Shown: positions 28,134 through 57,895 of the stretch, in pieces
Layout of the letters: each line of letters starts with the position of its first letter
Position numbering within the stretch: position 1 is the first letter of the stretch
NCBI GenBank assembly: GCA_964016885.1
Contig: OZ024743.1
Coordinates: 287,618,001-287,682,000, forward strand
Origin: Eledone cirrhosa
Lineage: Eukaryota
Direction of reading: 5' to 3'
DNA length: 64,000 bases
Translations under genes and position numbers: made by a program
Notes under the pieces: model-generated
The model's input: only the letters and a program-made list of their open reading frames with translations
Databases searched by the model: none
Told to the model about the DNA's origin: nothing

Positions 28134-28210
28134 CAATCATCATTTTGTAATAGTAGCAGTATAGTATAAGCATCAATAGCATAGTAGTAGTAGTGGTAGT
28201 GGTAGTGGTG

Positions 28211-28248
<38 letters not shown>

Positions 28249-28471
28249 GGTAGTAGTAGTAGCAGAAGTGGTGGTGGTAGTAGCAATAGTAGTGGTAGTA
28301 GTATTAATAGTAGTAGTAGTGGTAGTAGTAGTGGCGGTGGTGGTAGTAATAGTAGTAGTAGTAGTAGTGGTGGTGGTGGTGGTAGTAGTAGTAGTGGTGA
28401 TAGTAGTGGTATTAGTAGTAGTGGTAGTAGTAGTGGTGGTGGTGGTAGTAGTAGTAATGGTAGTAGTAGTG

Positions 28472-28510
<39 letters not shown>

Positions 28511-28535
28511 ATAGTAGTAGTAGAAGTAGTAGTTG
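27945..28535. repeat. Compound trinucleotide microsatellite (TTG/CTC/CTT/CAT/AGT/GGT)
   Basis: Direct reading. Confidence 0.95.
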
Positions 28536-28949
28536 TTCTTTAATATTTAATATTTTAGTCTCACTAACTAGTCGGTCTCCGTTTCCAGAGATAACTTGAG
28601 AGAGAAGAATTAAAGAGTTGACAGTTTGTTTAGACATTTTCTTTTCCCCCCCCCCCCCACGTCCCCACACATCCATCCCATCCTACCCTACCACACGTCT
28701 TCGGTTCTTTGTTTCCAGAACATTCTTCATGTATTTGTTTGACATTTAATAGTATCGTATATCATTAGAATAGGTTAAAATGGTTGACTTGTCGAATTAC
28801 CACAGCATGTTCGCATTCTTAGTCAAGTTTCTTTTCTGCTTGTTTTTCTTTTATATTTACCTCTCTTTTTCATTGGCCTTTGTTTTAGTTTCTCTCTTTC
28901 TTTTGTTGCCTCTGTATGTCTGTCTATCTGTCTGTCTATCTATTTGTCA

Positions 28950-29015
<66 letters not shown>

Positions 29016-29440
29016 AAAGGGCTGAGGTCAGACACCTTTCTCTCCGGCCAACAACTGATTCTTTTTTTCAAATACCACTTTGGAAGAAGAATCAGGATGG
29101 AGAGAGAGGTGCTGTACCCCAGCAAGTTTTATGAAAGGTGGGTGAAAGTGGCGAGAATGGCCCGAGTGAATGGGCCTTCTCTCTATATCAGCCTGTAGGT
29201 TGAGGAAAAGGAGGAGGAGAGGAAAGGAGTACAAGCTCTTCGTACTCCTGGAGATGAGGGTTGCACATTTTTTTCGGGGGTCTGTGTTACCCATATAAAC
29301 TGTCTCCCTCTATTGGGGAAAATCGACTAACTTTTAAATTCCATCTGTGATAACATTTTACACGTTTTTATTGTATGTAAACTTCCCCCTTTGTATTTGT
29401 CCCCTTCTTTTGTGCCCCTGTGGCTAATAAAGAAATATAT
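29016..29440 (+). mobile_element. Tx1 3' fragment, subfamily A, after an (ATCT)n tract
   Basis: Almost identical to 33287-33712; ends GCTAATAAAGAAAT + ATCT. Confidence 0.9.
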
Positions 29441-29460
29441 CTATCTTTCTTTCTTTCTTT

Positions 29461-32400
29461 CACAAGGCGAAATTGAGTTGGTTTTATAAGATGCCTTAAA
29501 AGACATTGCTTTCATTCAGAAGGGTAGACTCTACGGGAGTTTATCCATTCTGATGAAAGACCAGCTGACGGCACAAAAATATTCTGTGCCGCCAGTTGTG
29601 TCACCGTTGTTCACCTTTTCCCCCACTTAAATGGGGAAAAGAACAGGGAAAATAAAAATCCAAAGTATCACACCAAATATTGATATTTGGTGGGTACTAT
29701 GTGGATTTTTAAACCTCGAAAAAGACTCAATAATATTGGTAGGTAATTCCTCCGCAGACCTGTTCAGCGGAACTAGCCTGGAAATTCTGGTCCAAATGAC
29801 ACCAGAACGAATAGCTAGGATCCCGGAACGTGTGCTGCTGGATGGGCTTATATACATAAACATTTCGGTCGAGGGTAGGCGGCCCTCATGTTACCACTTC
29901 CTAAGCAGGGGTCACCTGAGAGCTTCCTGTCCTCGGCTAACTAGCCAAAAAAAGGCATTACTGCCAACACCTACAACACCAGCACAACAATCACCACCAC
30001 CACCACAACAACAACATAAAAAAATAGTGACAACAAAACAAACGACAAACACAGTCCCACCCAACCCCTCCCCACCTAAAACAACTCCAGAAACACCCAC
30101 ACACATAACAGCTCCCCAAAATGTACCCCTCCCCAACAACACGGATGAGGCCTCATCATCGTCACCCATTGACGATGAGGGAGAGCCTTTTCGACCAGTA
30201 AAAAGAATAAAGAAAAGACATAACACAAACAAAATGAAACAAACACACAAACACCAACACAAGCGACGCAAACAGCACAAACAAAAACATCCCCTCCTGA
30301 AAACAAAACACCTACTACAAAACGTAAACACACACAAGAACCACAGACAAAAAGCAACACAACAAAAATGTTACACCTACATAAATACTAACAATAAAAC
30401 TTTAACAGACACCATATATAAAAACCCTTCGGTGGAGACCGAAGAGAACACTTTTACACACTCTTCGGGGAATCCTAATCTTAAAATGATTAGGATCCCC
30501 ATGGACACACATAAACAGTTAAAAGAAAAATTTCCTAACGACATAGGTAATCCCAGCGTCAAACCCTATAACCACGTCCTTTTGAAATGTTTCCCCACCC
30601 ACACCCCAGACACCCACCTGACACCCCCTCCTCACCAAATATCTCCTTCCCCACCCCGCCAGAGACCACCACCCCACCAAACAACCCCTCCAACACCCCA
30701 TGAAAATTGTACAGCCTGGTCCCCAGGAGACGAAGAGGTGAGTGATTTCTTTTCCTCTTCTTTTAACTTTTCAGCACCAACATGGCCAATATAAGAGTTG
30801 GATGTGTGAATGTTCGCGGCCTGGGGATGCCCTGGAAACAGGGCAAACTCTTAAACAACCTCAGGTCGCACAGTATGGATGTAGTAGCCATTTGCGAGTC
30901 TAGGATCCACAGCGAGCGACAACTGGCCCCCATCTTCGACGACTTTGAGATCTACGCATCTCTCTGCCAGCCGGGAGGTGGGGGTGGGGTTGTCGTTTTG
31001 CTGCAGAAACACCTGGACCTCATAACACAGACGGTACATCTGGACCCGGAGGGTCGACTGGTGGTCCTAAACGTTGACGGTATTGAAGGTGGAGCCTTCA
31101 GGCTGGTGGCCGCATATGCCCCATCCACAACACCGCGGCCAGACTTCTTCAAACGCCTAGAGACTTTTCTGGGAACGTCCCGCTCCCTGCTGTTAGTGGC
31201 GGACTGGAATGGAATCCTAGATGCACGTTGGGACTATGTGGGAGCATGTCCCGATAGAGGGGTGTAACAGCCTCAAACAGTTAATCGGCCGATTTCAACT
31301 GGCCGATAAATATCGAATAGATTTTCCAACTGTGCCACTGTGGACGTGAGCCGAAGCAGATGTGCGCGGCCTTTCAGCGGCACTTTGCTCAACTGTTCGG
31401 GCAGGGCGGCGCGCCGGGAGGGGCTATGGATTTCGGTCCATACCTCGACAGCCTGTCGCGGCTCTCGGACAGCGAGGCGAAGTTCTGCGAAAGGCCGATT
31501 TCAGCCGCTGAGATAGAAAACGCGCTGAGCCAATGCGGCAAACGCAAATATCCAGGTCTCGACGGTCTACCCTACGAATTTTACGTAGCAATGACGGACT
31601 TGTTCTCCGGTCTCCTGGAAGCGGTCTACTGCAACTGGCAGCAGAACGGGAGAATGCCCAGCTCTGTAACCAAGAGCGTAGTCACGTTAGTCAGGAATGA
31701 CGAAAATAAGGGGGATGACATAGGCAACTTCCGGCCTATAACTCTGCTAAACACAGAGTTACAGATTTTGGCCAAGATGTTGGCAAAGAGGCTTGCGCTT
31801 GTCGTCCAAAACCTGGTGGGAGAAGCGCAGACAATTTGGATCAGTCTAAGGCTTTCGATAGGGTTGATCATCGTTACCTGGATGCGGTGCTCGAGGCGGC
31901 AAGCTTCGGACCCGTGTTCAGGGGCTGGATTGCTGCAATGCACAGCAGCAACATCTGCTCAAGGGTCAAGGTGAACGGCTACCTCTCGGAGCTGTTCCAT
32001 ATCACGCGATCCTTCCGAAAGGGATGCCCTCTCTCCTCCCTTCTGTACGTACTGATTCTCGAGTCACTACTGCGGAAGTTGGAGCTATTTCAGGGCATCC
32101 TTTTGGAATTGGGACATGACAGTAATGGTGTCGAGCACCTCACAAATCGGGGAGGTCGGCACCTTACTGAAGGAATACGAAAGGTTCACAGGAGCGAAGT
32201 TAAACCGGGACAAATCCGTCGGTTTGCAACTCGGAACGAGAGGCAAACCGATGCATTCCGATGGCGTCGTCGGACGCTGGACGGAAGGACCGGTAAAGCT
32301 GCTCGGGGTCTGGTTTGGTCCGGACCTCCAGGTGGAGAAGAACTGGAACGAGGTGACGGCCAAGGTGTTTGCGCTCACCCAGAAGTGGGCCGAGTGCAAA

Positions 32401-33712
32401 CTATCCTTGAAAGGTCGAGAAGAGGTGGCGAACACTTTTATAGCGTCCATCATCTACTACCGCTTTACCGTCGTGCCTTGTCCAGCCAAAACGCTCACCA
32501 AAATGGAGCGCGCGCTCTTCCAATTCCTTTGGAAGAAACGGGCTCCTTTGGTGAGAAGGTCCATCTGCTGCCAACACCCTTCAAACGGAGGGCTGGGGAT
32601 GCCCTGGCTGACGATGCGCAAACACGCGCTCAGGCTGCGGCACCTCCACGTATTCCTCACCGGACAACCAGTGTGGGCCCCGTTCGTGAGGCGAGCCTTC
32701 CCACGACTCGTCTCGCTGACCGAGCTGCAGTCCTGGGTCAAGCAAAGACCGAGGAAAATGGGCGACTGGCACATCGAATGTGTTCAGGCGATCACAGTCC
32801 TCTAGCAAACGGACCCGGCGATCAGTGGAGACTCCACTTCGTCATTCTATAGAGGGTTGATCCGCAGCAAGTGCGACGACGCGCTCGGAGAAACTCTAGG
32901 CGTAGTGGAGGACGAACTGGCTAGTCTGTTCGGTAGGACCTTCAGCCCGGGACCGGTGGACAACTTCCAAAAGTCCCTGGCCTGGCAGTGCTACCGAGGA
33001 GCTCTACCAGTTCGAGACAAGCTCTACAGACACGGGCGCCTCGAAAAAGATCTGTCCGAGATGCGTGCGCGACGAGGAAACTGTCGCGCACGCATTTGTA
33101 CACTGCCCGGGCGTTACCGACCTGTGAGGCTATGTAGAACGACTTTTGTCGCGCGTGGGACCAATCCAGTTGACCACCGAGTCCATTGTCATGATCAAAC
33201 CGCCACCCTCCTTCAAAAACGAAGGAGAGGCGGTTTTCCTTTGTGTGATAGCTATGGCGAAAGAGGTTGTATGGTGGACAAGGTTGAAAGGGCTGAGGTC
33301 AGACACCTTTCTCTCCGGCCAACAACTGATTCTTTTTTTCAAATACCACTTTGGAAGAAGAATCAGGATGGAGAGAGAGGTGCTGTACCCCAGCAAGTTT
33401 TATGAAAGGTGGGTGAAAGTGGCGAGAATGGCCCGAGTGAATGGGCCTTCTCTCTATATCAGCCTGTAGGTTGAGGAAAAGGAGGAGGAGAGGAAAGGAG
33501 TACAAGCTCTTCGTACTCCTGGAGATGAGGGTTGCACATTTCTTTCGGGGGTCTGTGTTACCCATATAAACTGTCTCCCTCTATTGGGGAAAATCGACTA
33601 ACTTTTAAATTCCATCTGTGATAACATTTTACACGTTTTTATTGTATGTAAACTTCCCCCTTTGTATTTGTCCCCTTCTTTTGTGCCCCTGTGGCTAATA
33701 AAGAAATATATC
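29461..33712 (+). mobile_element. 5'-truncated Tx1 (L1-clade) retrotransposon, subfamily A, with internal deletions
   Basis: ORF1 remnant 29631-30794 (degenerate knuckle CYHFLSRGHLRASC); ORF2 from ATG 30782: CVNVRGL, AYAP, PGLDGLP, NFRPITLLN, DQSKAFDRVDH; deletions versus the next copy at ~31348, 31832, 32117 (YADD lost), 33040. Confidence 0.92.
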
Positions 33713-33931
33713 TATCTATCTATCTATCTTGATAGAGTAAGACACGCTTCACATCGGCTCCGCTATTCCATCGGGATTTACCCTTACTATTGTAAGTACC
33801 GGATAAATTTTTCAGTGCAACACATTTGGAACACTAACCCCTGTTATTTAGGGAAACATTTTTGCATTTACCCCCTTTTTAGGGGGTAAAATAAATATCT
33901 AATTTTGCCGAAAAATTTCGTTCTTGGCAGC

Positions 33932-35710
33932 ATGGCGGAAAAGATGGCAGACATGTCTGCCATTAGCTCTGCCACGCCCCCCAAGTCTGAAGAACAAAAA
34001 ATAATTACAACAAAATTAGACAACGAAACAAACAAAGAAAATGAAAAAACAAATGTTAAGGAAAATGAGCAAACGGAAAACAAACAAACAGAAAATAATA
34101 CAAATAACAACAGGGCAACTTTCGCCCAGAAAACAAAACAATCCATTACATACACACCAATTGACCTAACGGCCGCCAGAGAAAAACTGGCCGAAGCAAA
34201 GAAACACATTGTTTTGGGGGAGAATGGAATGTTTTCCATTAACTCCCCCCCAGAATTCAAGAAAGCGAGAACAGAGAACACAGTTCTCTTCAGAACAATC
34301 CTAAACGAAACAAGAAAGCCAGCACAGCCCAGCCAAATGGAGATAGAGTTGGTCCTAAAAGACTATATGAAGAATATTCTCTTCATACGAAAGGACCGAC
34401 TCTATGGCAGCATTTCGGTCCTAACAAAAGACAAGGAAACGGCGGAGAAGCTTTCCATAAGCCCACTCTCATCGACAACATACAGCTTCTATCCCTCCTA
34501 CATGGGTAGAAGAACACAGAGAGTAAAAATACAAACAATGCTGCCCACAATGGACTTCTGGTGGGCTATTGCTGGCTTCATAGACATGGGCGAGGACACA
34601 GTGCTGTCAATGGGGAAGGCATCCGGAGATGCGTTCCTGGGAATGGGCCTCGACCTACTAGTCCAAATGAGGCCCGAAAGAATAGCACAAATCCCGGATC
34701 GCATCTGGCTGGATGAGCTCACCCCAATAGATATAATTGTAGAGGGGAGAAGACCAGCATGCTATTTATGCATGGAAAGGGGACACATTAAGGCTAACTG
34801 CCCGAAACGTGTCCCCCAAAAAGGACTATTGCCCACACCCACCACAAACAGTACACCAACACCACCCACCTCCAAAAATACACTAATACCACACACAGCA
34901 AACAAAATACAAACACCACCAAGCACATCACCACCACCAGCAGCAAACACAAGCTCGACACAAAAATCACCACCACCATCACCAACACAAACACCATCAC
35001 CACCATTACCAACCACAAGCACGACACAAACAGCACCACCACCACCACAAAACGCATTCCAAACAAATAATAAAAAAAACAGCAACAAATCTACCCCTCC
35101 CGCAAAAAAAAAACCAGACACGACGTCCCTCCCACCTAGCGCTGAAGAGTTTCCCCCAACTTCTGAAGAAGAAGGAGGAGAAGCTTTCAGACAAGTTAAA
35201 AGAAAAAAAAGAAAGCACACACCCAGCACACCACAAATAACCCACACACAAACACCAACTCCAATAAAAAACACCCCACCCTCAACAAACAAAAATAAAT
35301 CTGCGCCTCCCCTCTCCGAAACATTGACAGCATCACAAAAAAAGACATTGCAATACACATATATAAATAAAGAAAACAAAAAACTGTTTAAATTAATAAA
35401 CAATAGCCCTTTGGTGCAGACCGAAGGGCCAAACTTTATCTCAACAGAGAACTTGACCCATTTAAAAATGATAAAGGTCCCTCTGGACCTTTATCGTTCC
35501 TTAAAAGAACAATTTAGACAGGACGTGAGCCCCCCCTGTTTAAAACCGTTAAATCGCGTCCTCTTGAAAGATTTCCCCATAACCTCCCCTCTCCCTGACA
35601 CAACTCCAAACACCCCAACCCAACCACACTCGGGCACCCCACACCACCACAAAACATCCCTCCACCCAACACACCTGACGCCATGGAAATTACACAACCC
35701 GGAGAGGTAA
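33932..35710 (+). CDS. Tx1 ORF1 gag-like nucleic-acid-binding protein
   Basis: Open ~590 codons; CCHC knuckle CYLCMERGHIKANC; Pro/Thr-rich linker; basic KRKKRK patch. Confidence 0.85.
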   Translation: MAEKMADMSAISSATPPKSEEQKIITTKLDNETNKENEKTNVKENEQTENKQTENNTNNNRATFAQKTKQSITYTPIDLTAAREKLAEAKKHIVLGENGMFSINSPPEFKKARTENTVLFRTILNETRKPAQPSQMEIELVLKDYMKNILFIRKDRLYGSISVLTKDKETAEKLSISPLSSTTYSFYPSYMGRRTQRVKIQTMLPTMDFWWAIAGFIDMGEDTVLSMGKASGDAFLGMGLDLLVQMRPERIAQIPDRIWLDELTPIDIIVEGRRPACYLCMERGHIKANCPKRVPQKGLLPTPTTNSTPTPPTSKNTLIPHTANKIQTPPSTSPPPAANTSSTQKSPPPSPTQTPSPPLPTTSTTQTAPPPPQNAFQTNNKKNSNKSTPPAKKKPDTTSLPPSAEEFPPTSEEEGGEAFRQVKRKKRKHTPSTPQITHTQTPTPIKNTPPSTNKNKSAPPLSETLTASQKKTLQYTYINKENKKLFKLINNSPLVQTEGPNFISTENLTHLKMIKVPLDLYRSLKEQFRQDVSPPCLKPLNRVLLKDFPITSPLPDTTPNTPTQPHSGTPHHHKTSLHPTHLTPWKLHNPER

Positions 35711-35741
35711 GTGCTTTTCTTTCTTCACTTTCAACACCAAA

Positions 35742-38700
35742 ATAGATCAATTGAGAGTTGGCTGTTTGAACGCGCGTGGCCTGGGCTCAGCTTGGAAGCA
35801 AGCAAAGCTACTAAGTGACCTCAGGTCACGAAGTATAGATGTGATGGTTGTCTGCGAGAGTCGGATCAGCAGCGTCCGACAGCTGGCTCCCGCCTTCGAT
35901 GACTTTGAGATGCACGCATCTCTCTGTCAACCCGGAGGCGGGGGGGGGGGGGAGTTGCCGTACTGCTGGATAAACGTCTGGCTCTCGACGTACAGATTGT
36001 TCACTCGGACTCGGGGGCTCGAATACTGGTGCTGGACGTCGGAGGCGGTGAAGGCGGGGCTTTCAGACTGGTCGGTCTTTATGCCCCCTTCGGGGCTGAA
36101 AGAGCCGACTTCTTCCAGCGTCTGGAGACTTTTCTAGGAACGTCGCGTTCCCTGCTTTTAGTGGGGGACTGGAATGGAATCCTAGATGCGCGTTGGGACT
36201 ATGCAGGGGCATGTCCCGATAGAGGGGGTGTAGCAGCCTCAAGGGGTTACTCGATCGATTCGACCTGGTCGATAGATTTCGACTAGATTGTCCAACTGCG
36301 CCAACCTGGACCTGGGCAAACCGCAGTGGACAATCTAGATCGTACCTAGATAGGTTTTTGGTTAGGAGTAAGGATAGGGACGTATTTAGTTGTCCAGAAT
36401 TGATCATGGTTGGCTATTCAGATCACAAATTAGTGACCTGCGTGGTCAACCTTGATAGAACGCATAGACAGGGTCCCGGTTACTGGAAGATGAACTTGTC
36501 CTTGCCGGCAAAGAAAGATTACAGGAACCGGATTAGTAGCTTAGTTAAGATGCGGTTGACGGGAGCGATTATCAACAGTAGGTGGTGGGTATCTCTAAAG
36601 AGAGAGATTAGAGTAAGTTCGATAGGTTACAGTAAGGAACTAGCGGCGAATAGAAATAGGAAGGAAAGGGAGTTAACAGATAAACTAGAAGAGGCGATTA
36701 GGAGCGGAGACGTAGCCAGAGTGTTAGCGGCGAGAACGGCGTTGAGCCAGTTCTTTGACGCCAAGCACGAAGGCTGCGTTGTCCGAAGTAAAATACGTGC
36801 TTTAGGAAACGAGGGGACCAAAGCTGTTAGCTGGGCCCGCGTGACAGAAGCCAAGAGTGGGATTAAATCCACCATTCGGTCTTTGCGAGACCAGGATGGA
36901 CGGGTGATCCTTGAACCTGAGCGGATGTGCGAGGCCTTTCAAAGGCACTTTGCTCGACTGTTCGGAGGGGGCGGGGGGCCGGACGGGGATGTGGACTTCG
37001 GTCCATACCTCGACGGTCTACCGCGTCTTTCGAGCGGCGAAGCGGAGTGCTGCGAAAGGCCAATCACAGCCACTGAAATCGGGGAAGCGCTCAGCCAATG
37101 CAGCAGACGCAAATCTCCGGGTCTCGATGGTCTACCATACGAACTTTATTTAGCTATGCCGGTCTTGTTCTCCGAACTCCTCGAGGCTGTCTATTGCAAC
37201 TGGCAACAGAACGGGAGAATTCCCTGTTCTGTGACCAAGGGCGTGGTCACGCTAGTGAGGAAGGACGAGAGCAAGGGGGACGACTTAAGTAACTTTAGGC
37301 CCATAACTCTGCTGAATGCAGAGTTACAGATTTTGGCCAAGGTGTTGGCGAAGAGGTTGGCGCTTGTGGTGGGTGGTTTGGTGGGAGACGCGCAGACATG
37401 CGCTATCCCGTCCAGGTCCATTCACGACAACCTCCACCTCATGCGATATATCATAGAGAGGGTTGGCAACGAACCCGGCTTTGGTGGGGCCCTGATCAAC
37501 TTGGATCAATCTAAGGCGTTCGATAGGGTCGACCATGGTTACCTGGATGCGGTGCTAGCGGCGGCGGGCTTCGGACCCGTTTTCAGGGGCTGGATTTCTG
37601 CCATGCACAGTGGCAACATCTACTCTAGGATTAAAGTAAACGGCTACCTCTCGGAGCCGTTTCAAATCACCCGGTCCATCAGACAGGGGTGCCCCCTCTC
37701 CTCCCTTCTGTACGTATTGACTCTCGAGCCACTGCTGCGGAAGTTGGAGTTGCTGCGGGGCATACCCCTGGAACCGGGATTGCACAAAGCGGACTCGGCC
37801 TATGCCGACGACGTAACAGTAATGGTGGCGGACGCCTCGGAAATAGGGGCGATCGCCACCCTACTGGAGGAATACGAAAGGCTGACGGGGGCTAGGCTGA
37901 ACCGGGACAAGTCAGTCGGTTTGCAACTCGGAACGTGGAGGGGCAAACCGATGCCGTTAGACGGTGTCGTCGGGCGGTGGACGGAGGGCCCGGTGAAGCT
38001 GCTCGGGGTCTGGTTCGGACCGGACCTCCAGGTGGAGAAGAATTGGGGCGAGGTGACGAGCAGGGTGTTTGCGCTGACCCAGAAGTGGGCCAAGTGCAAA
38101 CTATCACTGAAAGGTCGGGCGGAGGTGACGACGCTTACACAGCGTCCGTCATCTGCTACCGCCTGACCGTCGTGCCTTGCCCCAAGGAAAAGATCACCAT
38201 CATGGAACGCATGCTCTTCCAGTTCCTCTGGAAGAAGCGGCCTCCCATGGTGAGGAGATCCATCTGCTGCCAGCACCCTTCGAAAGGAGGGCTGGGTATG
38301 CCGTGGCTGTTGATGCGTAGGCACGCATTGAGGCTACGGCATCTACAGGTATTCCTCACCGGTCAGCCGGTGTGGGCCCCGTTTGTGAGGCGAGCCTTCC
38401 CACAGCTCGTCTCGCTCACCGAGCTGCAATCCTGGGTGAAGCAAAGACCGAGAAAACTGGGCAACTGGCACACCGAGTGTGCCCAGGCGCTCACGGCTAT
38501 CTGGCAAGCGGACCCGACTGTCAGTGGAGAATCCACCTCGACATTCTATAGAGGGCTGGTGGCTAGCAGGGGCGACGACACCCTTGGAGAGTCGCTAGGC
38601 ATGGAGGAGGACGAACTGGCCAGCCTGTTCGGTAGAACTTTCGGCCCGGGACCCATGGACAACTTCCAGAGGTCCCTAGCCTGGCAGTGTTACCGGGGGG

Positions 38701-39182
38701 CTCTGCCCGTTCGAGAAAAGCTCTACAGACACGGGCGCCCGGGCAGGGATCCAGCGAAAAAGATCTGTCCCAGATGCGTGCGCGACGAGGAAACCGTTGC
38801 GCATGCACTGGTACACTGCCCGGGCGTTGCCGATCTGTGGGGCTACGTCGAACGACTGCTGTCGCGTGTGGCGCCGATTCGATTAACCGCCGAGTCTGTG
38901 GTGAACATCAAGCCGCCGCCTCCCTTCAGAAACGAAGCAGAGGCGGTCTTTCTGTGCGTAATAGCCATGATGAAAGAGGTTGTGTGGTGGACGCGCCTGA
39001 AAGGTCTGAGGTCGGGTGACTTTCTCTCCGGCCATCACCTGGTTTACTTCTTCCGATACCACTTCGGAAGAAGGATCAGGATGGAGAGAGAAGTGCTTGG
39101 CCCCAGACAGTTTTATGAAAGGTGGGTGAAAGAAGCGAGAATGGCTCGTGTAAATGGGCCTTCTCTCTACATTGTTCTGTAG
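35742..39182 (+). pseudogene. Tx1 ORF2: AP endonuclease, RT, C-terminal CCHC zinc-binding domain
   Basis: CLNARGL, GDWN, SYLDRF, SDH, SPGLDGLP, DQSKAFDRVDH, IRQGCPLS, AYADD (37801), CPRC..ETVAHALVHC; start ATG->ATA; frameshifts at ~35945, 36225, 38135. Confidence 0.92.
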
Positions 39183-39412
39183 GTGAAGAAGTGAAGAGGA
39201 AAGGGGGAGCGCCTCCTCTCTGGGCTTCCCCCGCGAAAAGGGTTGCACACTTTTCGGGGGTATGTGCAATCCCGAACACGCCCCCTCCCTTTTGAGGACT
39301 TTTTATTATTATATTATTATTGTTATTCCTTTTTCTTTACTCGATTTATGTAAACTCCCCCACTGTGTAAATGTCCCCTTCTTTTGTGCCCTCGTGGCAA
39401 ATAAATAGAAAT

Positions 39413-39480
<68 letters not shown>

Positions 39481-39481
<1 letters not shown>

Positions 39482-41459
39482 ATGCGATACATCATAGAGA
39501 GGGTGGGTAGTAAACCCGGCTTCGGTGGGGCTCTGATCAACTTGGATCAGTCTAAGGCATTCGATAGGGTCGACCATCGATACTTGGAAGCGGTTCTCAA
39601 GGCGGCCGGTTTCGGTCCCGTGTTCAGAGGATGGATCGAGGCGATGCACACCAGCATCTGCTCGAGGGTCAAGGTGAACGGCTACCTATCGGAGCCGTTC
39701 GCAATCACGCGTTCCATTCGACAGGGATGCCCTCTCTCCTCCATTCTGTATGTATTGACTCTAGAGCCACTACTGCGGAAATTGGAGCTGTTGCAGGGCA
39801 TCCCTCTAGAACCGGGACTGCGCAAAGCGGCGTCGGCTTATGCCGACGACGTGACAGTAATGGTGTCGAGCACCTCGGAAATCGGGGTGATCGGCAACAT
39901 ACTGAAAGAATACGAAACGCTGACGGGAGCAAAACTAAACCCAGACAAGTCTGTCGGTTTGCAACTCGGTACGTGGAGAGGCAAACCGATGACATCCGAC
40001 AGCGTCGTTGGACGCTGGACGGACGGACCGGTAAAATTGCTCGGGGTCTGGTTCGGTCCAGACCTCCAGGTGGAGAAAAACTGGAACGAGGTCACGGCCA
40101 AGGTGTTTGCACTCACTCAGAAGTGGGCAGAGTGCAAACTGTCCTTGAAAGGTCGAGCGGAGGTGGCGAACACTTTCATAGCGTCCGTCATCTACTACCG
40201 CTTGACTGTCGTGCCTTGTCCCCGTGAACACCTCGCCAAGATGGAACGCATGCTCTTCCAGTTTCTGTGGAAGAAGCAGGCTCCGCTGGTGAGGAGATCC
40301 GTCTGCTGTCAGCACCCTTCCAACGGAGGGCTGGGAATGCCGTGGCTGATGATGCGCAAACATGCGCTGAGGCTGCGGTATCTCCAGGTATTCCTCACCG
40401 ACCCCCAACCGGTGTGGGCACCGTTTGTGAGACAGGCTTTCCCACAGCTCGTCTCGCTAACGGAGCTGCAGTCCTGGGTGAAGAAAAGACCGAAAACGAT
40501 GGGCGCCTGGCACATTGAATGCGCTCAGGCGCTCACAGTCCTCTGGCAAGCGGGCGCAGCAATCAGTGGAGACTCCACTTCGACATTCTATAGAGGGATT
40601 GTACGTTACAAGGGCGACGACGTGCTCGGAGAGACTCTGGGCGTCGAAGACGATGAGCTCACCAGTATGTTTGGTAGGACTTTCCGCCCGGGACCTATGG
40701 ACAACTTCCAGAGGTCCCTGGCCTGGCAGTGCTACCGAGGAGCTCTACCGGTTCGTGACAAGATCTACAGGCACGGACGCCCTGGCAGGGATCCTTCCAA
40801 GAGGACGTGTCCAAGATGTGCGCAGGACATTGAAACAGTTCTGCACGCAATTGTACACTGCCCGGGCGTAAGCGACCTGTGGAACTATGCAGAACAACTG
40901 CTGTCGCGTATGGGACAAATACAGTTGACTGCCGAGTCCATAGTAAGGATCAAACCGCCAGACTCTTTCAAAAACGAAAGAGAGGCGGTTTTCCTCTGTA
41001 CGGTGGCTATGGTGAAAGAAGTTATATGGTGGACGAGGTTGAGAGGACTGAGGACAGATGCCGTTCTCTCCGGACAACAATTGATTCCATTCTTTAAGTA
41101 TCACTTTAGAAGGAGAATCTGGGTGGAGAGAGAGCCACTGCACCCCAGTAAATTTACTGAAAGGTGGGTGAATGAAGCGAAAATGGCCCGAGTGATTGGG
41201 CCTTCTCTGTTTATAAGCCTGTAGGTTGAGGAAGAGAGCAAACGGAAGAAAGGAGCACTTTCACAACACGCTCCTTGAGTTGAGGGTTGTTCTATCGACG
41301 GGGTATTAAACAACCCATTTGTGGCGCCTCCCCCCTATTGGGGATTTCGATTGTTGAAATTGTTTGTTTTTATATTTTTTACACGACTGTATGTAAAATC
41401 CCCGGCATGTCTTTGTATTGTCCCCTTTCTTGTTGCGCCCTTGTGGCTAATAAAGAAAT
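39481..41459 (+). mobile_element. 5'-truncated Tx1, subfamily C (uninterrupted ORF2 half to 41224)
   Basis: DQSKAFDRVDH, AYADD, CPRC..HC; begins at (TATC)n and ends AATAAAGAAATCTATCTAT. Confidence 0.93.
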
Positions 41460-41639
41460 CTATCTATGTTTCCTATTTCTTTGCCTATTTTCGTCTTAAA
41501 TTGCATCTGTTTGTTTATTCAATATTCTATTTTTATTTTTTATTTATATTGTAGATTCCAGAAATAGCTGTCGAAACGGAGTCCAAAAATAGCTGTCGAA
41601 ACGGCATGAGCTCTGCCGTCGGGGTTCTGACTATTTTCC

Positions 41640-45193: not shown

Positions 45194-46145
45194 TCTATAT
45201 ATATAAAACTGTGGTTGTCTGTCTGTCTATCGATTTTTGGCACACATCTCCTCTTAGAATCTCTCACGGAATTGCACCGAAATTGCTATACTTGTACATT
45301 GAGCCCTAGCGAAGACATCGGAAAAAAAAATATTTCAAATTCACCCACCCTATGTGACGAAATCGAATATAATGTATCGATTTTTGAGCGTAAGTTATCA
45401 GTTATTTCCCTTTGTTCTGTTTACATTGAGCGTCTTACGTAAAAAATTACGCTGGCTTTAACAGTTGTCGAGCCAGCAAAATATTGACCTGCAAAATTCA
45501 TCAGTTCGAACACTAAGCTTCCGTTTTGCTTCATTTCCATTTAAAAGCATTTTAAAACAATATTTTTACTTGAAAACAAGTCTATTTAAAGACTACGTAA
45601 AACAAGCAAATATTTCGTCGTTAGGCGTGCAGACAGACAGTCGTGCAGACAGATAGTCGTGCAGAGAGGTGATATACGCGTGCAGACAGATAGTCGTGCA
45701 GAGAGGTGATATAGGCGTGCAGACAGACAGTCGTGCAGAGAGGTGATATAGGCGTGCAGACAGACAGTCGTGCAGAGAGGTGATATAGGCGTGCAGACAG
45801 ACAGTCGTGCAGAGAGGTGATATAGGCGTGCAGACAGACATAACTGATAATTTGGTTACGCTAATGTTTTTCTCTGCGTTGCAGTGTTTACATTTTCGAT
45901 CTTTGTTAATAAATAACCAGTGCAGTTTCTATCCCCAGCATCCTCTTTTGTTATAACATTCGGGTTATCGTTATGTTTTCTTAACTTCATAAGGCATATT
46001 GTTGGTTGAGGGAATATTAATCAAAAACACCACATGCAAGTCTGCACAGTAGACACTACAGTTTTTAAGCCAAGAAAGAAACTTAACATTGTAACTTTAA
46101 CACAGCTACTGAGCGACCCCGAGCAACGCCGGGCTTTACTGCTAG
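45194..46145 (+). mobile_element. Non-autonomous Helitron with an internal 37-bp minisatellite (45623-45840)
   Basis: A|TCTATATATATAAAA...CCCGAGCAACGCCGGG..CTGCTAG|T; unit GTGCAGAGAGGTGATATAGGCGTGCAGACAGACAGTC. Confidence 0.8.
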
Positions 46146-51130: not shown

Positions 51131-51349
51131 CACTAGATTCTTCGTTTTACCGTTCGTGCATAGTATATGAAGATTTCCTGGTGTTTCCACACGTGAATAA
51201 CCTAGATATAGAGAGGGGGAGAGATTATTGGTGTTAGATATAGAGCGGGGTATGAGAGAGTGCCATGTGGTTGATATTGAGAGGAGGAGAGTTTAGTGGT
51301 AATGAATAGAGTGAGGGAGATTAGAAGAGAGTGCCGTCTGGTAGATATA

Positions 51350-52454
51350 TATTTCTATTTATTTGCCACCAGGGCATCAAAGATTGGGACAAATACAAAG
51401 GGGGGAGTTTACATACATTTAAAAAGACGTGTAAAAACATATAACAAATTAAATTTAACAATCGATGTCCTCAATAGGGAGGGGCGTTGACATGGGTCGC
51501 ACACCCCCCGAAAAAATGTGCAACCCTCCTCTTCAGGAGCACAAAGAGCGGGTGCTTCCTTCCTCTTCTCATTCTTCTCCTCTCTCACCTACAGGCTGAT
51601 ATAGAGAGAAGGCCCATTCACTCGGGCCATTCTCGCTACTTTCACCCACCTTTCATAAAACTTGCTAGGGTAGAGCACCTCTCTCTCCATTCTGATCCTT
51701 CTTCTAAAGTGGTACTTGAAAAAAAAGACCAGTTGTTGGCCGGAGAGAAAGGTGTCTGACTTCAGCCCTTTCAACCTTGTCCACCATACAACTTCTTTCG
51801 CCATAGCTATCACACAGAGGAAAACCGCCTCTCCTTCGTTTTTGAAAGGGGGAGGTGGTTTGATCGTGACAATGTTCTCGGTGGTCAACCGGATTGGTCC
51901 CACCCGCGACAGTAGTCGTTCCACATAGCCCCACAGGTCAGCAACGCCCGGGCAGTGTACGAATGCGTGTGCGACGGTTTCCTCGTCACGCACGCATCTC
52001 GGACAGATCTTCTTCTGTAGAGCTTGTGTCTGTAGAGCTTGTCCCGAACGGGTAGAGCTCCTCGGTAACATTGCCAAGCCAGGGACTTTTGGAAGTTGTC
52101 CATCGGTCCCGGGCCAAACGTCCTACCGAACAGACTGGCCAGCTCATCTTCCTCCATGCCCAGAGCCTCTCCGAGAGCGTCGTCGCACTTACTGCGCACC
52201 AACCCTCTATAGAATGTTGAGGTTGAGTCTCCACTGATTGCCGTATCCGCTTGCCAGAGGGCCGTGAGCGCCTGAGCACATTCAATGTGCCAGTCGCCCA
52301 CTTTTATCGGTCTTTGCTTGACCCAGGATTGCAGCTCGGTGAGTGAGACGAGTCTCAGAAAGGCTCGCCTCACAAACAGGGCCCACACCGGCTGACCGGT
52401 GAGGAATACCTGGGGGGTGCCGTAGCCTTAATGCGTGTCTACGCATCGTCAGCC
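51350..52454 (-). mobile_element. 5'-truncated Tx1 related to subfamily A, with ~20-bp TSD
   Basis: ORF2 C-terminus ..ARVNGPSLYISL; TSD AGTGCCGT(C/G)TGGTAGATATA at 51330-51349 and 52455-52474. Confidence 0.92.
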
Positions 52455-53129
52455 AGTGCCGTGTGGTAGATATAGAGAGGTTGAGAGTTTGAAGGTAGTA
52501 GATATAAAGAGGGGTGTTGGGAGAGGTAGGTGTATGTTAGATATAGAGAGGAGGGAAAGTTTAGTGGTTATAGATATAGAGGGGAAGAAATGAGAGAGTG
52601 CCGTGTGCTAGATAGAGAGGGGGGGGGGGAATGATTGCTGGTAGTAGATATAGAGAGGGGTCTTGGGAGAGATAGGAGTGTGATAGATATATAGAGGGAG
52701 AGAGTTTAGTGATAATGGATATATAGACGCATGCAGGGAGAGATAGTTTCGTAATAGATATATATATAGAGAGAGAGATTATGAATGTTAGAATGTGTGG
52801 TAGATATAGAGAGGGGGAGATTTTAGTGGTTATGGATATAGAGAGGTGGATTAGAAGAGAGTGCCGTGTGCTAGATAGAGAGAGGGGTAGAGATTGGTTG
52901 TAGTAGATATAGAGAGTTATATTGGGAGAGATAGGTGTATGGTAGATATACAGAAGGGAAGAGCTTAGTGTTGTTAGATGTAGAGAAGGTGATAATGAGA
53001 GAGTGCTGTGTGGTAGCATTATATATAGAGGGGAATTGGGAGAGATAGGTGTAGATAGATAGAGAGAGGAGGAGAGATTGGTGTTAATGGAGAGAGTGAG
53101 GGGGATTGGGAGAGAATGTATATTAGAGA

Positions 53130-53380: not shown

Positions 53381-54019
53381 ATATATATAACTGTTTATAG
53401 GTTAAAAGTGATTTTCTTGTATTCAATTCTAAAACTATGAAACTCCGAGCCTGTTGATGCTCGAATTTTTAAAATTACTAAGCACGGAGGAAATAAATTT
53501 ATAAGATGTAGGATGCTCAGTAGCATAAAGAAGCTGTAATTGATAGTGGTACGGGTGAAGGTAGTCAATATGATGGTGGTGATATACATACACACGCACT
53601 CATTCACATATACACACACACAAACATATACACACACATAAACATCGTTATAAAAATCGGGTGAAGACCCCCTGAGGCGGCAAAATGTTGCCAGCGTCCC
53701 CTACGAAGAAACGAACTCCGTATCTCTCAGATAGCAGCTGGGCGCTCTAACCTTGAGTTCAGGAACCTTGGAAACATCTTACCCTCTAAATTAGAAACTG
53801 AATCAAACAGCTCTTGAAAATATAAACAAACGTCATGTGTAAAGCTCGAGTTTTCGAACTTACTAAGCGCCGAGGATATAAATTTATAAGAAGCTTAGAC
53901 AGCAGACAGTAATTGGTGTTATTTTCTGCATCTGATCTCTCCACCCCCACGCAAACACACACACGCAAACACACACACGCACACACACGCACACACACGC
54001 ACACACACGCGCACACGCG

Positions 54020-54103
<84 letters not shown>

Positions 54104-54317
54104 CATATACATATATAAAGTCAGTCTGGGTCGTTTCACATACACGGTTCCGGGTTCAATTCCACTGAGTGGAACTTCAGGAGAGAGTCTTCTTCTACAG
54201 TAGAATTTGGTAGACAGGAACTGCAGAAGCCCGTCGTCTTTCTCTATATATATCTTTATTAATACACACACACACACACACATATATATATACTGTCTAT
54301 CTGTCCACACACGCACG

Positions 54318-54409
<92 letters not shown>

Positions 54410-54450
54410 CTGTCTATCTGTCCACACACACACACACACACACACGCACG

Positions 54451-54504
<54 letters not shown>

Positions 54505-54541
54505 CTGTCTATCTGTCCACACACGCACGCACACACACACG

Positions 54542-54577
<36 letters not shown>

Positions 54578-54919: not shown

Positions 54920-55870
54920 AACAACAGCAATAACAATTATCACCATCAACATAACGACAACAACAGCAGCAGCAATAGCTATATCAATCATCACCGCCGC
55001 CACCATCACTGTCAGGACGACGACGACGACGACCACCACCACCACCATCACCACCACCACCAACACCACCACCAACACCACCACCACCATCACCACCACC
55101 ACCACCACCACCATCACCACCACCACCACCACCACCACCATCACCACCACCACCACCATCACCGCCATCACTACAAGCACCCCCCCCCCCCCCCCACCAC
55201 CACAAGCACCCCCATCACCCCCCCCCCCCCATCACCACAAGCACCACCATCACCACCACCACCACCACCACCAACACCACCACCACCACCACAAGCACCG
55301 TCACCACTACCACCACCATCATCACCACAAGCACCACTACCACCACTATCACCATTACCACCACCTTCATCACAACCACCACCACTACCACTACCACCAC
55401 CACAACAACAATAACAGCAATGACTACAACTGCAATCACCACCATCATTACCACCATAATAATGGTTTCTTATATAGGCACAAGGCCAGCAATTTTGGGG
55501 GAGGGGAAAATCGATTAAATCGACCCCAGTACGTTACTGGTACTTTATTTTATCGACCCCGTAAGGATGAAAGCCAAAGTTAACCTCGGCGGGATTTGAA
55601 CTCAGACCATAAAGGGCCGTAACTCTTTGCTGCAAAGCATGGCGTCCGACCCTCTACCGATACTGCCAATCCATCATAATAATGACCACCAGCACCAGCA
55701 CCAGCACCACCGCCACCACCAGCACCACCACCACCACCACCTCTAGGACCATTGCTACGACAAAGACCACCACCACCACCAGCAGCACCAGCACCACCAC
55801 AACCACCACCACCACCACCACCACCAGCACCACCAACACCACCACCAACAACAACAACAACAACAATAGT
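54920..55870. repeat. (CAC/CAA/CAT)n compound repeats, split by a SINE
   Basis: Direct reading. Confidence 0.92.
55463..55677 (-). mobile_element. Well-preserved tRNA-derived SINE (OK/Meta-core-like)
   Basis: Minus: TGGCAGTATCGG A-box, GAGTTCAAATCCC B-box, CTTTCATCCTTACGGGGTCGATAAAATAAAGTACCAG core. Confidence 0.88.
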
Positions 55871-56630
55871 AAGAAGAACACACCAACGTTGGGGGTTAAG
55901 GTAGACAAGAGTACGCAAGTGACGTGTCTCAACAGATGTTTCAACATTGCACTCCCGAATATCTGGCTGTAACCAGATCTCACCAACATCCTTCTTCTCT
56001 TGCCCATCTGTTTCACTTCATTTTCTTCCGATACTCATTAAAAGCTTTTAACCTATTCGCTTGCTCTTTCTTGCTCTTTCTTGCTCTTTCTTTGCTCATT
56101 TTTGCCTGCAATCTCTTCCCCAACACCCAACCATCGTTTAACCTTCACCTTGACACGAGTTCGTCTTGTCTTCTCTCGTCTCCTCATAGAACTAACACTA
56201 AACTGAAACACACGGTTATCATATGTGTTCTATAAAATACTATAGTGACAACTTCATAAATTTCTATGATACACTGGGATTTATATCATTTCAGATGATT
56301 CTGTTTATTTTATTCTATTTTATTTTATGGTATTTTGTTACTGAGAATTTTCGCTTCTGAAACACCTATTATTATATACATACATACATACATACATACA
56401 TACATACATACATACATACATACATACATACATACATACATACATACATACATACACAGAAGCACACACACACAACCGTACACCGTCACACACACAACAC
56501 ATATATACACACACACATACAAGCACACACACACACATATATATATACATACATAACTGGCACCAACAAACCTACCATCAGCACAACAACCATCGTCAGT
56601 GTACATATAATCTATCTATCTGTCTGTCTA

Positions 56631-56695
<65 letters not shown>

Positions 56696-56696
<1 letters not shown>

Positions 56697-57140
56697 GAGG
56701 TTGTATGGTGGACAAGGTTGAAAGGGCTGAGGTCAGACACCTTTCTCTCCGGCCAACAACTGATTCTTTTTTTCAAATACCACTTTGGAAGAAGAATCAG
56801 GATGGAGAGAGAGGTGCTGTACCCCAGCAAGTTTTATGAAAGGTGGGTGAAAGGGGCGAGAATGGCCCGAGTGAATGGGCCTTCTCTCTATATCAGCCTG
56901 TAGGTTGAGGAAAAGGAGGAGGAGAGGAAAGGAGTACAAACTCTTCGTACTCCTGGAGATGAGGGTTGCACATTTTTTTCGGGGGTGTGTGTTACCCATA
57001 TAAACTGTCTCCCTCTATTGGGGAAAATCGACTAACTTTTTAAATTCCATTTGTGATAACATTTTACACGTTTTTATTGTATGTAAACTTCCCCCTTTGT
57101 ATTTGTCCCCTTCTTTTGTGCCCCTGTGGCTAATAAAGAA

Positions 57141-57142
<2 letters not shown>
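56696..57142 (+). mobile_element. Tx1 3' fragment, subfamily A, in (ATCT)n
   Basis: Near-identical to 33262-33706; TATC repeats on both sides. Confidence 0.92.
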
Positions 57143-57223
<81 letters not shown>

Positions 57224-57259
57224 AATCTATCTATCTATCTAACTGTTTATCTATCGGGT

Positions 57260-57895
57260 AGGACATTGAAACTGTCTTGCACGCAATTGTACACTGCCCG
57301 GGCGTAACCGACCTGTGGAACTATGCAGAACAACTGCTGTCGCGTATGGGTCAAATCCAGTAGACTGCTGAGTCCATAGTAAAGATCAAACCGCCAACTT
57401 CTTTCAAAAACGAAAGAGAGGCGGTTTTCCTCTGTATAGTGGCTATGGTAAAAGAGATTATATGGTCGACGAAATTGAGAGGACTGAGGACAGATGCCTT
57501 TCTTTCCGGACAACAACTCATTCCCTTCTTTAGGTACCACTTTAGAAGGAGAATCAGAGTGGAGAGAGAGGCACTGCACCCCAGTAAATTTACTGAAAGG
57601 TGGGTGAATGTGGTAAAAATGGCCCGTGTGATTGGGCCTTCTCTGTATATAAACCTGTAGGTTGAAGAAAAGAGCAAAAGGAAGAAAGGCGCACTTGCAC
57701 AGCACGCTCCTGAAGTTGAGGGTTGTTCTATCTACGGTGTATTAAACAACCCATTTGTGGCGCCTCCTGCCTATTGGGGATTTTTATTGTTAAATTTGTT
57801 TGTTTCAATATTTTTACACGATTGTATGTAAAACCCCCGGCATATGTCTTTGTTTTGTCCCCTTTTCTTGTGCGCCATTGTGGCTAATAAGAAAT
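57260..57895 (+). mobile_element. Tx1 3' fragment, subfamily C, following an (ATCT)n tract
   Basis: Similar to 40824-41459; ends AATAAGAAATCTATCTATCT. Confidence 0.9.

Follow-up and report, generated by a model that had tools for sequence, protein, structure and literature searches.

Among retrotransposons without long terminal repeats (non-LTR retrotransposons), several families of the Tx1 clade insert into microsatellites: Kibi into (TC)n, Koshi into (TTC)n and crocodilian Tx1 into (TTCC)n/(TTTC)n; other Tx1 families target U2, 5S, U5, satellites and transposons (PMC4494074, available text). The strings ATCT, GATA, TCTA and TAGA occur nowhere in that article. In its available text, a review names only Waldo, Mino, Kibi, Koshi and Dong as microsatellite-specific long interspersed nuclear elements (LINEs) (PMC3812793), to which the available text of PMC4640811 adds the (TG)n-specific Togen and microsatellite-specific HERO families. 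Here we describe a 64,000-bp window of contig OZ024743.1 from Eledone cirrhosa (the whole stretch of DNA analysed, positions 287,618,001-287,682,000 of the source contig, numbered below from its first base; assembly size 3.0 Gb), in which copies of related LINEs stand head to tail in (ATCT)n arrays. From these copies and their relatives elsewhere in the genome we propose, with a probability of roughly 0.75, that about a dozen related families of the L1/Tx1 group, with an apurinic/apyrimidinic-type endonuclease (APE-type), insert in fixed orientation into (ATCT)n, likely by sequence-directed target-primed reverse transcription (TPRT).

Like Kibi, Koshi and crocodilian Tx1, whose endonuclease is thought to set the target (PMC4494074 and PMC3812793, in the text available for each), the elements described here are APE-type LINEs that lie in a particular microsatellite with the repeat at both ends. 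They have in common with Kibi and Koshi a co-oriented microsatellite at both junctions, truncated copies included (ATCT at 24 of 34 truncated 5' junctions, the reverse repeat AGAT at 0 of 34). Unlike the all-pyrimidine units of those families, however, the unit here is ATCT/AGAT, and (CT)n and (AT)n are only minority sites; the host is mollusc-like, whereas theirs are vertebrates, and about a dozen diverged families have the target in common. The element works like Kibi or Koshi but is not one of them, a distinction drawn from the target unit. Waldo and Mino (R1 clade; (ACAY)n and (AC)n), Dong (R4 clade; (TAA)n) and Togen (NeSL-related; (TG)n) are likewise microsatellite-specific non-LTR elements (available text of PMC3812793 and PMC4640811), but they belong to other clades and use other units, and the endonuclease of Dong and Togen is of the restriction-like type, whereas the element here aligns best with the ORF2 protein (ORF2p) of human LINE-1 (L1).

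Four element copies joined by ATCT repeats

Read base by base, positions 28,919-41,468 hold four same-strand non-LTR retrotransposon copies (c1 to c4) from three subfamilies (A, B and C), and the junctions between them consist of ATCT-type repeats only. Open reading frames (ORFs) are named by order in the element, and TRF denotes Tandem Repeats Finder.

28919-29015, plus strand: (TCTA)24 microsatellite at the upstream edge of the main stack, with unique DNA before it; the resident target tract (TRF and sequence).
29016-29436, plus strand: c1, a 421-bp 5'-truncated 3' fragment of subfamily A, ending GGCTAATAAAGAAAT (99.76% identity to the 3' end of c2; sequence).
29437-29461, plus strand: c1-c2 spacer, AT ATCT ATCT TTCT TTCT TTCT TTC (sequence).
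29462-33707, plus strand: c2, subfamily A, 5'-truncated inside the ORF1 region, without ORF2 residues 210-409 and with several frameshifts.
33708-33729, plus strand: c2-c3 spacer, AT(ATCT)5, the tail of c2 and/or a putative 5' leader of c3 (sequence).
33730-39412, plus strand: c3, a full-length subfamily B copy, starting TGATAGAGTAAG.
39413-39481, plus strand: c3-c4 spacer, TT(ATCT)16ATC (TRF and sequence).
39482-41459, plus strand: c4, subfamily C, 5'-truncated inside the reverse transcriptase, with ORF2 residues 587-1165 in a single open frame.
41460-41468, plus strand: 3' flank of c4, CTATCTATG, with unique DNA after it.

We take c3 to be full length because its first 28 bases have 242 exact occurrences in the genome and its length of 5.68 kb is that of other full-length copies. 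Its ORF1 is open from an ATG at 33932 to 35710 (~592 codons) and includes a CCHC knuckle; its ORF2 (~35679-39182, with the endonuclease domain at roughly 35754-36463) carries three frameshifts, near 35909-35945, 36226-36247 and 38130-38133. Pairwise BLAST groups c1 and c2 with a further copy, c5, in subfamily A (98.6-99.8% identical) and c4 with c6 in subfamily C (90%), with c3 as subfamily B; the three subfamilies are 78-79% identical to each other. All six copies terminate GGC[A/T]AATAA(A)..GAAAT, with the repeat directly after.

A first-pass annotation of this DNA had proposed four same-strand copies from three subfamilies with TATC/TTTC-type spacers, a shared AATAA..GAAAT terminus before ATCT and two more copies stacked downstream. 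Our reading reproduces the first arrangement almost base for base, finds the terminus in every one of the six copies listed and recovers the additional pair at 56.7-57.9 kb (c5 and c6, listed below), while a seventh copy, c7 (minus strand, 51351-52456), had been missed. The full-length copy with an open ORF1 that was reported is c3; the description does not extend to c2, the start of which aligns inside its relatives and which has the ORF2 deletion and frameshifts given above. The repeat at the joins had been described as spacers; it is real, but part of it belongs to the elements themselves, as leader or tail.

Contigs of sequencing runs X1 and X4 cover the element part of 40900-41630 very deeply, and loose ends of X1 and X6 contigs behind 41467 read CTATCTAT...; the unique flank in this interval is uncovered by X1, X4, X5 and X6 contigs, with nothing from X5, and no empty site or orthology is readable from them.

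Most truncated copies adjoin ATCT in one orientation

Exact genome searches returned 2901 occurrences of the subfamily A 3'-end 27-mer, 1244 of the subfamily C 3'-end 27-mer and 242 of the subfamily B 5'-end 28-mer, against 0 matches for the reversed-pattern controls. Junctions were sampled at the first 30 loci per pattern along contig C1, each with 1.5-kb flanks (loci are given below as L numbers). At least two perfect ATCT units lie within 14 bases of the 3' junction in 27/30 A copies and 21/30 C copies, and an ATCT run stands at the 3' end of 19 of 20 full-length B copies. At the other end, all 30 full-length B copies begin after ...CTATCTATCT (...ATCTATCT) in one phase; what precedes this is the 3' end of a different copy in 10 cases and unrelated DNA in 20.

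The informative class consists of 5'-truncated copies, in which the RNA 5' end is absent and no leader is possible. Of the 30 copies in the A sample, 11 extend beyond the locus and three with internal deletions (L007, L014 and L016) were dropped, leaving 16 junctions, of which 13 adjoin ATCT: nine scored by script and four stacked junctions (L004, L012, L023 and L026) that the script had binned as 'internal' and that we reassigned by eye. In the C sample, 11 copies run off the locus and one internal deletion (L139) was dropped, and ATCT adjoins 11 of the remaining 18 junctions. Together, at least two ATCT units adjoin 24 of 34 truncated 5' junctions and the reverse repeat none, whereas in the window, element-rich as it is, just 0.74% of positions are preceded within 22 bases by two or more such units. 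Several of the arrays upstream of truncated copies are long, at 11 to 15 or more units. The 5' flanks of truncated copies are thus non-random, as a genome-wide comparison of junctions was expected to reveal if the repeat were, as first claimed, a target and not only a tail.

Perfect (ATCT)8-or-longer runs have 11,511 starts genome-wide. Element copies touch 23 of the first 30 such runs, upstream or downstream (L086 and L098 counted as probable), and seven runs have no touching copy (L085, L096, L100, L101, L105, L106 and L109). All BLAST matches at the sampled runs have one orientation relative to the ATCT strand, and unrelated families are stacked together at many loci.

Full-length copies carry some of this repeat with them. 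In 29 of 30 full-length B copies the preceding ATCT run has 2-7 units, irrespective of the DNA further upstream, and runs at the 3' end range from 1 to 25 units (median 8). At L077, an 18-bp duplication, TCTCTCTCTCTCTATCTG, lies outside both a 7-base ATCT-like leader and an (ATCT)6(CTTT)3 tail, and at L073, 28 ATCT-like bases stand between a duplicated 18-mer and the 5' end. The commonest dinucleotide after GAAAT is AT in subfamily A, TT in B and CT in C; because it is family-specific, it behaves as part of the element, and these dinucleotides suggest that reverse transcription begins at or beyond them. Full-length RNA probably begins a few ATCT units upstream and reads through into the downstream flank of the source copy. 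Compound tails, in which (ATCT)n is followed by (CT)n or (CTTT)n and then by (AT)n, occur at L069, L071, L027, L012 and L077 and look like source-copy flank carried by read-through (3' transduction).

Carried leaders and tails (L073, L077), and the narrow 2-7 units before full-length B copies regardless of upstream DNA, could be taken to mean that ATCT is simply the element's own slippage-made 3' tail plus a 5' leader, that insertion is essentially random and that the stacks are coincidental; microsatellite tails are common in LINEs. Truncated, leaderless copies nevertheless adjoin ATCT in 24/34 cases at random internal breakpoints, where 0.74% or less is expected, and several of their upstream arrays reach 11 to 15 or more units. 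Further, C copies inserted outside the repeat have no ATCT tail, and the simplest reading of the ATCT that follows the remaining ~90% of C ends is therefore target DNA. We regard the tail model as largely refuted, and its chance of being correct as very small. The argument for targeting is carried by the truncated-copy statistics together with the tail-less off-target C copies. Non-random 5' flanks also set these elements apart from stringent-type LINEs of the CR1/L2 style, which have a microsatellite tail only.

Stacks might also form without repeated insertion, through unequal recombination between ATCT arrays or tandem duplication between them. The 99.76% identity of c1 to the end of c2 fits such an origin, as does the amplification of some copies with identical flanks within larger tandem units (L119/L120, L161-L164). 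The window stack, however, joins three subfamilies that share only 78-79% identity and differ in their truncation points, and unrelated families are stacked repeatedly, at many loci. Subfamily A copies in the genome are 99-100% identical to c2; judged by this identity the subfamily is young genome-wide, so that a local duplication is not needed to explain c1. Recombination as the source of the stacks is accordingly a reading we find barely credible, and we retain repeated insertion.

The tandem units were seen at L119-L121 (C1 ~35.25 Mb and 36.18 Mb) and L161-L164 (C1 ~430.29 Mb), where 5'-truncated C copies with identical flanks recur at a spacing of 2,362 bp (L119/L120) or 2,368-2,521 bp (L161-L164). 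Identical flanks and regular spacing indicate a LINE fragment amplified in a larger tandem repeat, so these copies are not independent insertions.

Insertions outside the repeat

Several observations weigh against strict targeting of (ATCT)n. The 3' ends of 126 of 1244 C copies (~10%) read GAAATCAAT and lie in non-ATCT DNA at AATAT sites; 10 of 34 truncated 5' junctions are without ATCT; and full-length B copies L071, L074, L076 and L077 lie in (AT)n or (CT)n tracts, with (AT)n on both sides at L071 and L074 and CT-rich DNA at L076. Because leader and tail are carried, a full-length copy flanked by ATCT at both ends is no proof of an ATCT target, and the figure of 23 in 30 arrays mixes targets with element-made tracts. 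The sampled loci were unselected for their flanks but are not a random sample of the genome, and sequence alone does not separate the endonuclease from RNA-DNA pairing as the determinant of the site. What the elements display is a strong oriented insertion preference for (ATCT)n, not strict specificity; the earlier designation of an ATCT/GATA-specific lineage holds in the first sense and fails in the second.

Among 30 off-target C loci, eight independent events have clear target-site duplications of 9-17 bp. All eight duplications begin AATAT, the preceding base is T (5) or C (3), and an ATCT tail is present in none. Duplications were also found at ATCT-like sites: 11 bp, CTATCTATCAA, at a two-unit ATCT site (L117), and 17-19 bp, ATATCTACCA[C/G]ACGGCA, around c7. 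These duplications mark insertion as ordinary TPRT with staggered nicks, and the exact start of off-target C copies at GAAAT(C) shows that reverse transcription can begin without pairing.

These sites bear on a second account of the bias, in which the endonuclease loosely prefers AT-rich or alternating sequence and the excess of ATCT comes from pairing of the nicked end with AUCU (or CU, AU) read-through, so that insertions succeed mainly where the flank of the source copy and the target match. Compound (ATCT)n(CT)n(AT)n tails face (AT)n or (CT)n targets at L069, L071 and L077, as if source flank had been copied until pairing was possible, and off-target sites beginning AATAT are near an L1-like AT-rich preference. 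Yet off-target C copies start exactly at GAAATC, where no pairing is possible, and have no tail, so the start site can be set without pairing. Their motif, Y^AATAT(W), also resembles the repeat: ^AATATWT and ^TATCTAT match at 5/7 positions, a hint of preference at the level of the endonuclease. Moreover, c7 and L117 lie at ATCT-like unique sites. We consider targeting by pairing alone, the main rival account, unlikely and prefer sequence-directed insertion helped by pairing.

About a dozen families with ATCT ends

The 3' ends found before ATCT arrays fall into about twelve sequence types, all with GTGGC[A/T]AATAAA..GAAA. At least four more kinds of full-length 5' end follow ATCT arrays, beginning ACGATGGACACATG.., CAGACGTGTGTAACTTCGCGG.., AATCTAGCTGTCGTCTG.. 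and GACGTGTGGAACATCG.. (loci L081/L089, L090/L099/L107/L017/L018, L088/L014/L023, L086 and L064/L006). In their bodies these elements share only 67-75% identity with the window copies, which makes the ATCT habit common to quite old lineages. In sequencing runs X5 and X6, labelled as two further organisms (B and C), 56-57% of sampled 31-mers of the subfamily A 3' region are present, which points to near-identical subfamily A copies beyond the label of the source organism.

An alignment of the 3' untranslated region from nine diverged families was also searched for RNA structure. A 4-bp hairpin, CCYC...GRGG, lies ~100 bases before the 3' end (alignment columns 31-44) with one covarying pair (UA in 5 families, CG in 4), and a 3-bp GCC...GGC stem stands beside AATAAA near the end (columns 156-166); both are too weak and small to call.

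An L1-group protein, probably of the Tx1 clade

The window copies, with their damaged ORF2s, give weak or split Pfam matches (Exo_endo_phos, RVT_1 and zf-RVT, with the CCHC knuckle in ORF1). Of twenty full-length B copies (~5.7 kb) taken from elsewhere in the genome, two have an uninterrupted ORF2: L075 (1168 aa) and L079 (1165 aa). Exo_endo_phos scores 39.6 bits in L079 and 47 bits in L075 (cut-off 24.5), RVT_1 scores 85.4 bits, above its cut-off, and zf-RVT scores 25.1 bits, just under its cut-off of 27.5. The best match of the intact ORF2 in the PDB is human LINE-1 ORF2p (residues 26-875, E 1e-49, 172 bits), with which the endonuclease motifs N, E, Y, D-N, D and SDH align; R2 proteins in the PDB match the reverse transcriptase core only. 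This contrast between an end-to-end alignment with L1 ORF2p and a match to R2 at the core alone places the element in the L1 group. The copies also bear the signatures of TPRT: a fixed 3' end, scattered 5' truncation points and target-site duplications of 9-19 bp at off-target or ATCT-like sites. Judged by its predicted protein, the element is an APE-type non-LTR retrotransposon of the L1 group.

The order of APE endonuclease, reverse transcriptase and C-terminal domain is that of human LINE-1 ORF2p (PDB 8uw3, 8sxt, 9k6g and others), over ~850 aligned residues, and target-site duplications of ~9-19 bp and frequent 5' truncation are likewise L1-like. Human L1, by contrast, has a poly(A) end and uses loose TTTT/AA sites genome-wide, whereas the elements here are without poly(A), have ATCT ends and occupy one oriented microsatellite; their ORF1 with a CCHC knuckle is a further difference.

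Membership of the Tx1 clade is quite likely on indirect evidence. A preference for particular target sequences, widespread in the clade although not strictly defining it, is present here too. Among named homologs, the sole clade-type label is 'Transposon TX1 uncharacterized 149 kDa protein', attached to two Stylophora proteins (P0173 and P0239), one of which has 30% identity over 747 aa (292 bits). Among named relatives, hypothetical proteins of Argonauta hians come closest (61-67% identity), and matches in the ESM Atlas are generic 'reverse transcriptase' clusters without clade information. The element has the Tx1-like motifs LDQxKAFDRV and YADD.

In the available text of two studies, the recently active LINEs of Octopus vulgaris include L1-Tx1 as their sole L1-group class (13 families, 421 insertions; PMC13282606), and Tx1, not L1, represents the L1 group among mollusc LINE clades (PMC10294476). 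The families described here are probably among these annotated mollusc L1-Tx1 repeats. The available text mentions no insertion target for the octopus and mollusc L1-Tx1 families, and that of PMC13282606 uses the word 'target' 0 times.

The ORF2 frame of subfamily B (L079:740-4234:-, L075:720-4223:-; window ~35679) has no ATG before the first endonuclease motif, its first Met being residue 55, and reads ATC GAC CAA CTA where subfamily A (window ~30783) has ATG GCC AAT ATA. At L062 and L079, ORF1 and ORF2 share one frame, with stop codons between them. The subfamily B frame suggests that its ORF2 may be started by reinitiation or another unconventional route. In c2, an intron-like GTGAGT...CAG lying between the two ORFs was dropped as a candidate, the acceptor being absent in subfamily B.

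A proposed insertion cycle

From the observed anatomy, domains, orientation, junction statistics and duplications we infer the following cycle. Transcription of a full-length copy would start a few ATCT units before its body and pass the AATAAA signal into the downstream ATCT tract; because the signal lies 5-9 bases before the element end, cleavage would fall within the flank. The ORF2 endonuclease would then nick one strand, (AGAT)n or a similar A/C-T alternating sequence, presumably directly at the C of the ATCT unit or beside it. The 3' end released in this way, ...AGAT, could pair with the AUCU read-through of the RNA and prime reverse transcription there, so that no poly(A) would be copied, and poly(A) was seen at none of the junctions. 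A second nick 9-19 bp away would give rise to a target-site duplication, which would be invisible inside the repeat, and 5' truncation would be frequent. The new copy would keep or bring an ATCT tract at its 3' end and, if full length, at its 5' end too. Because each insertion would in this way keep or add ATCT tracts, it would provide sites for the next insertion, and head-to-tail stacks like the 12.5-kb one could build up.

Other copies and repeats in the window

The remaining copies lie downstream of the main stack.

56610-56695, plus strand: compound tract ATCT/GTCT/(CT)n/ATCT upstream of c5 (TRF and sequence).
56696-57142, plus strand: c5, 5'-truncated subfamily A, 98.6% identity to c2.
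57143-57257, plus strand: c5-c6 spacer, an ATCT array of ~28 units (TRF and sequence).
~57258-57895, plus strand: c6, 5'-truncated subfamily C, 90% identity to c4, followed by CTATCTATCTG and then unique DNA.
51351-52456, minus strand: c7, 5'-truncated, ~86% identity to c2, at a ATATCTACC site inside a satellite (whole-window BLAST).

The satellite that holds c7 lies at 52494-53030 (and 51200-51350) and has nested periods of ~71, 146 and 259 bp. Read on the minus strand, the satellite units hold CTCTATATCTA-type motifs, one of which is the insertion site of c7. Long simple repeats are abundant elsewhere in the window (28182-28533, 53955-54559, 55032-55847 and 45642-45840) and include (TAG)117, (AC)n tracts of 150 and 250 bp and (ACC)n tracts of 370 and 160 bp; a 37-bp unit is also repeated 5.4 times at 98% identity.

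Discussion

No (ATCT)n-targeting LINE was found in the searchable open-access full-text literature, although one may be described in Repbase, Dfam or subscription sources; the first-pass annotation's view of the lineage as undescribed stands for the open-access literature and is limited to it. What we describe is probably a microsatellite-directed APE-type LINE, itself probably Tx1, with a new target unit, and a mixed purine/pyrimidine (ATCT)n/(GATA)n target would be new to the known Tx1 repertoire of pyrimidine-only repeats. Three features make the system notable: a target that is a mixed-base tetranucleotide, its use by so many diverged families, and the self-renewing ATCT niche.

Site-specific APE-type LINEs serve as natural experiments on how an endonuclease domain and RNA-target pairing set the integration site, and they are also explored as programmable insertion tools. 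Here, diverged families, intact copies, off-target duplications and a common nick-site motif make endonuclease specificity directly testable against 3' read-through pairing. In our sample, elements are physically linked to most of the long (ATCT)n arrays in this 3-Gb genome, which is relevant to microsatellite marker design and to the annotation of cephalopod-like repeats.

More tentatively, and with the balance of our judgment somewhat against it, these families may represent an old, diversified Tx1-like radiation (about a dozen families, thousands of copies) that specialized on (ATCT)n/(GATA)n, with a niche renewed by the 5' leader and read-through tail of each insertion and with an endonuclease that recognizes GATA repeats in a phase-specific way. 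If so, the radiation would have a target that the open-access literature searched reports for no retrotransposon, its endonuclease could be examined, or put to use, as a microsatellite-directed integration module, and most long (ATCT)n arrays would have been made or occupied by the elements themselves.

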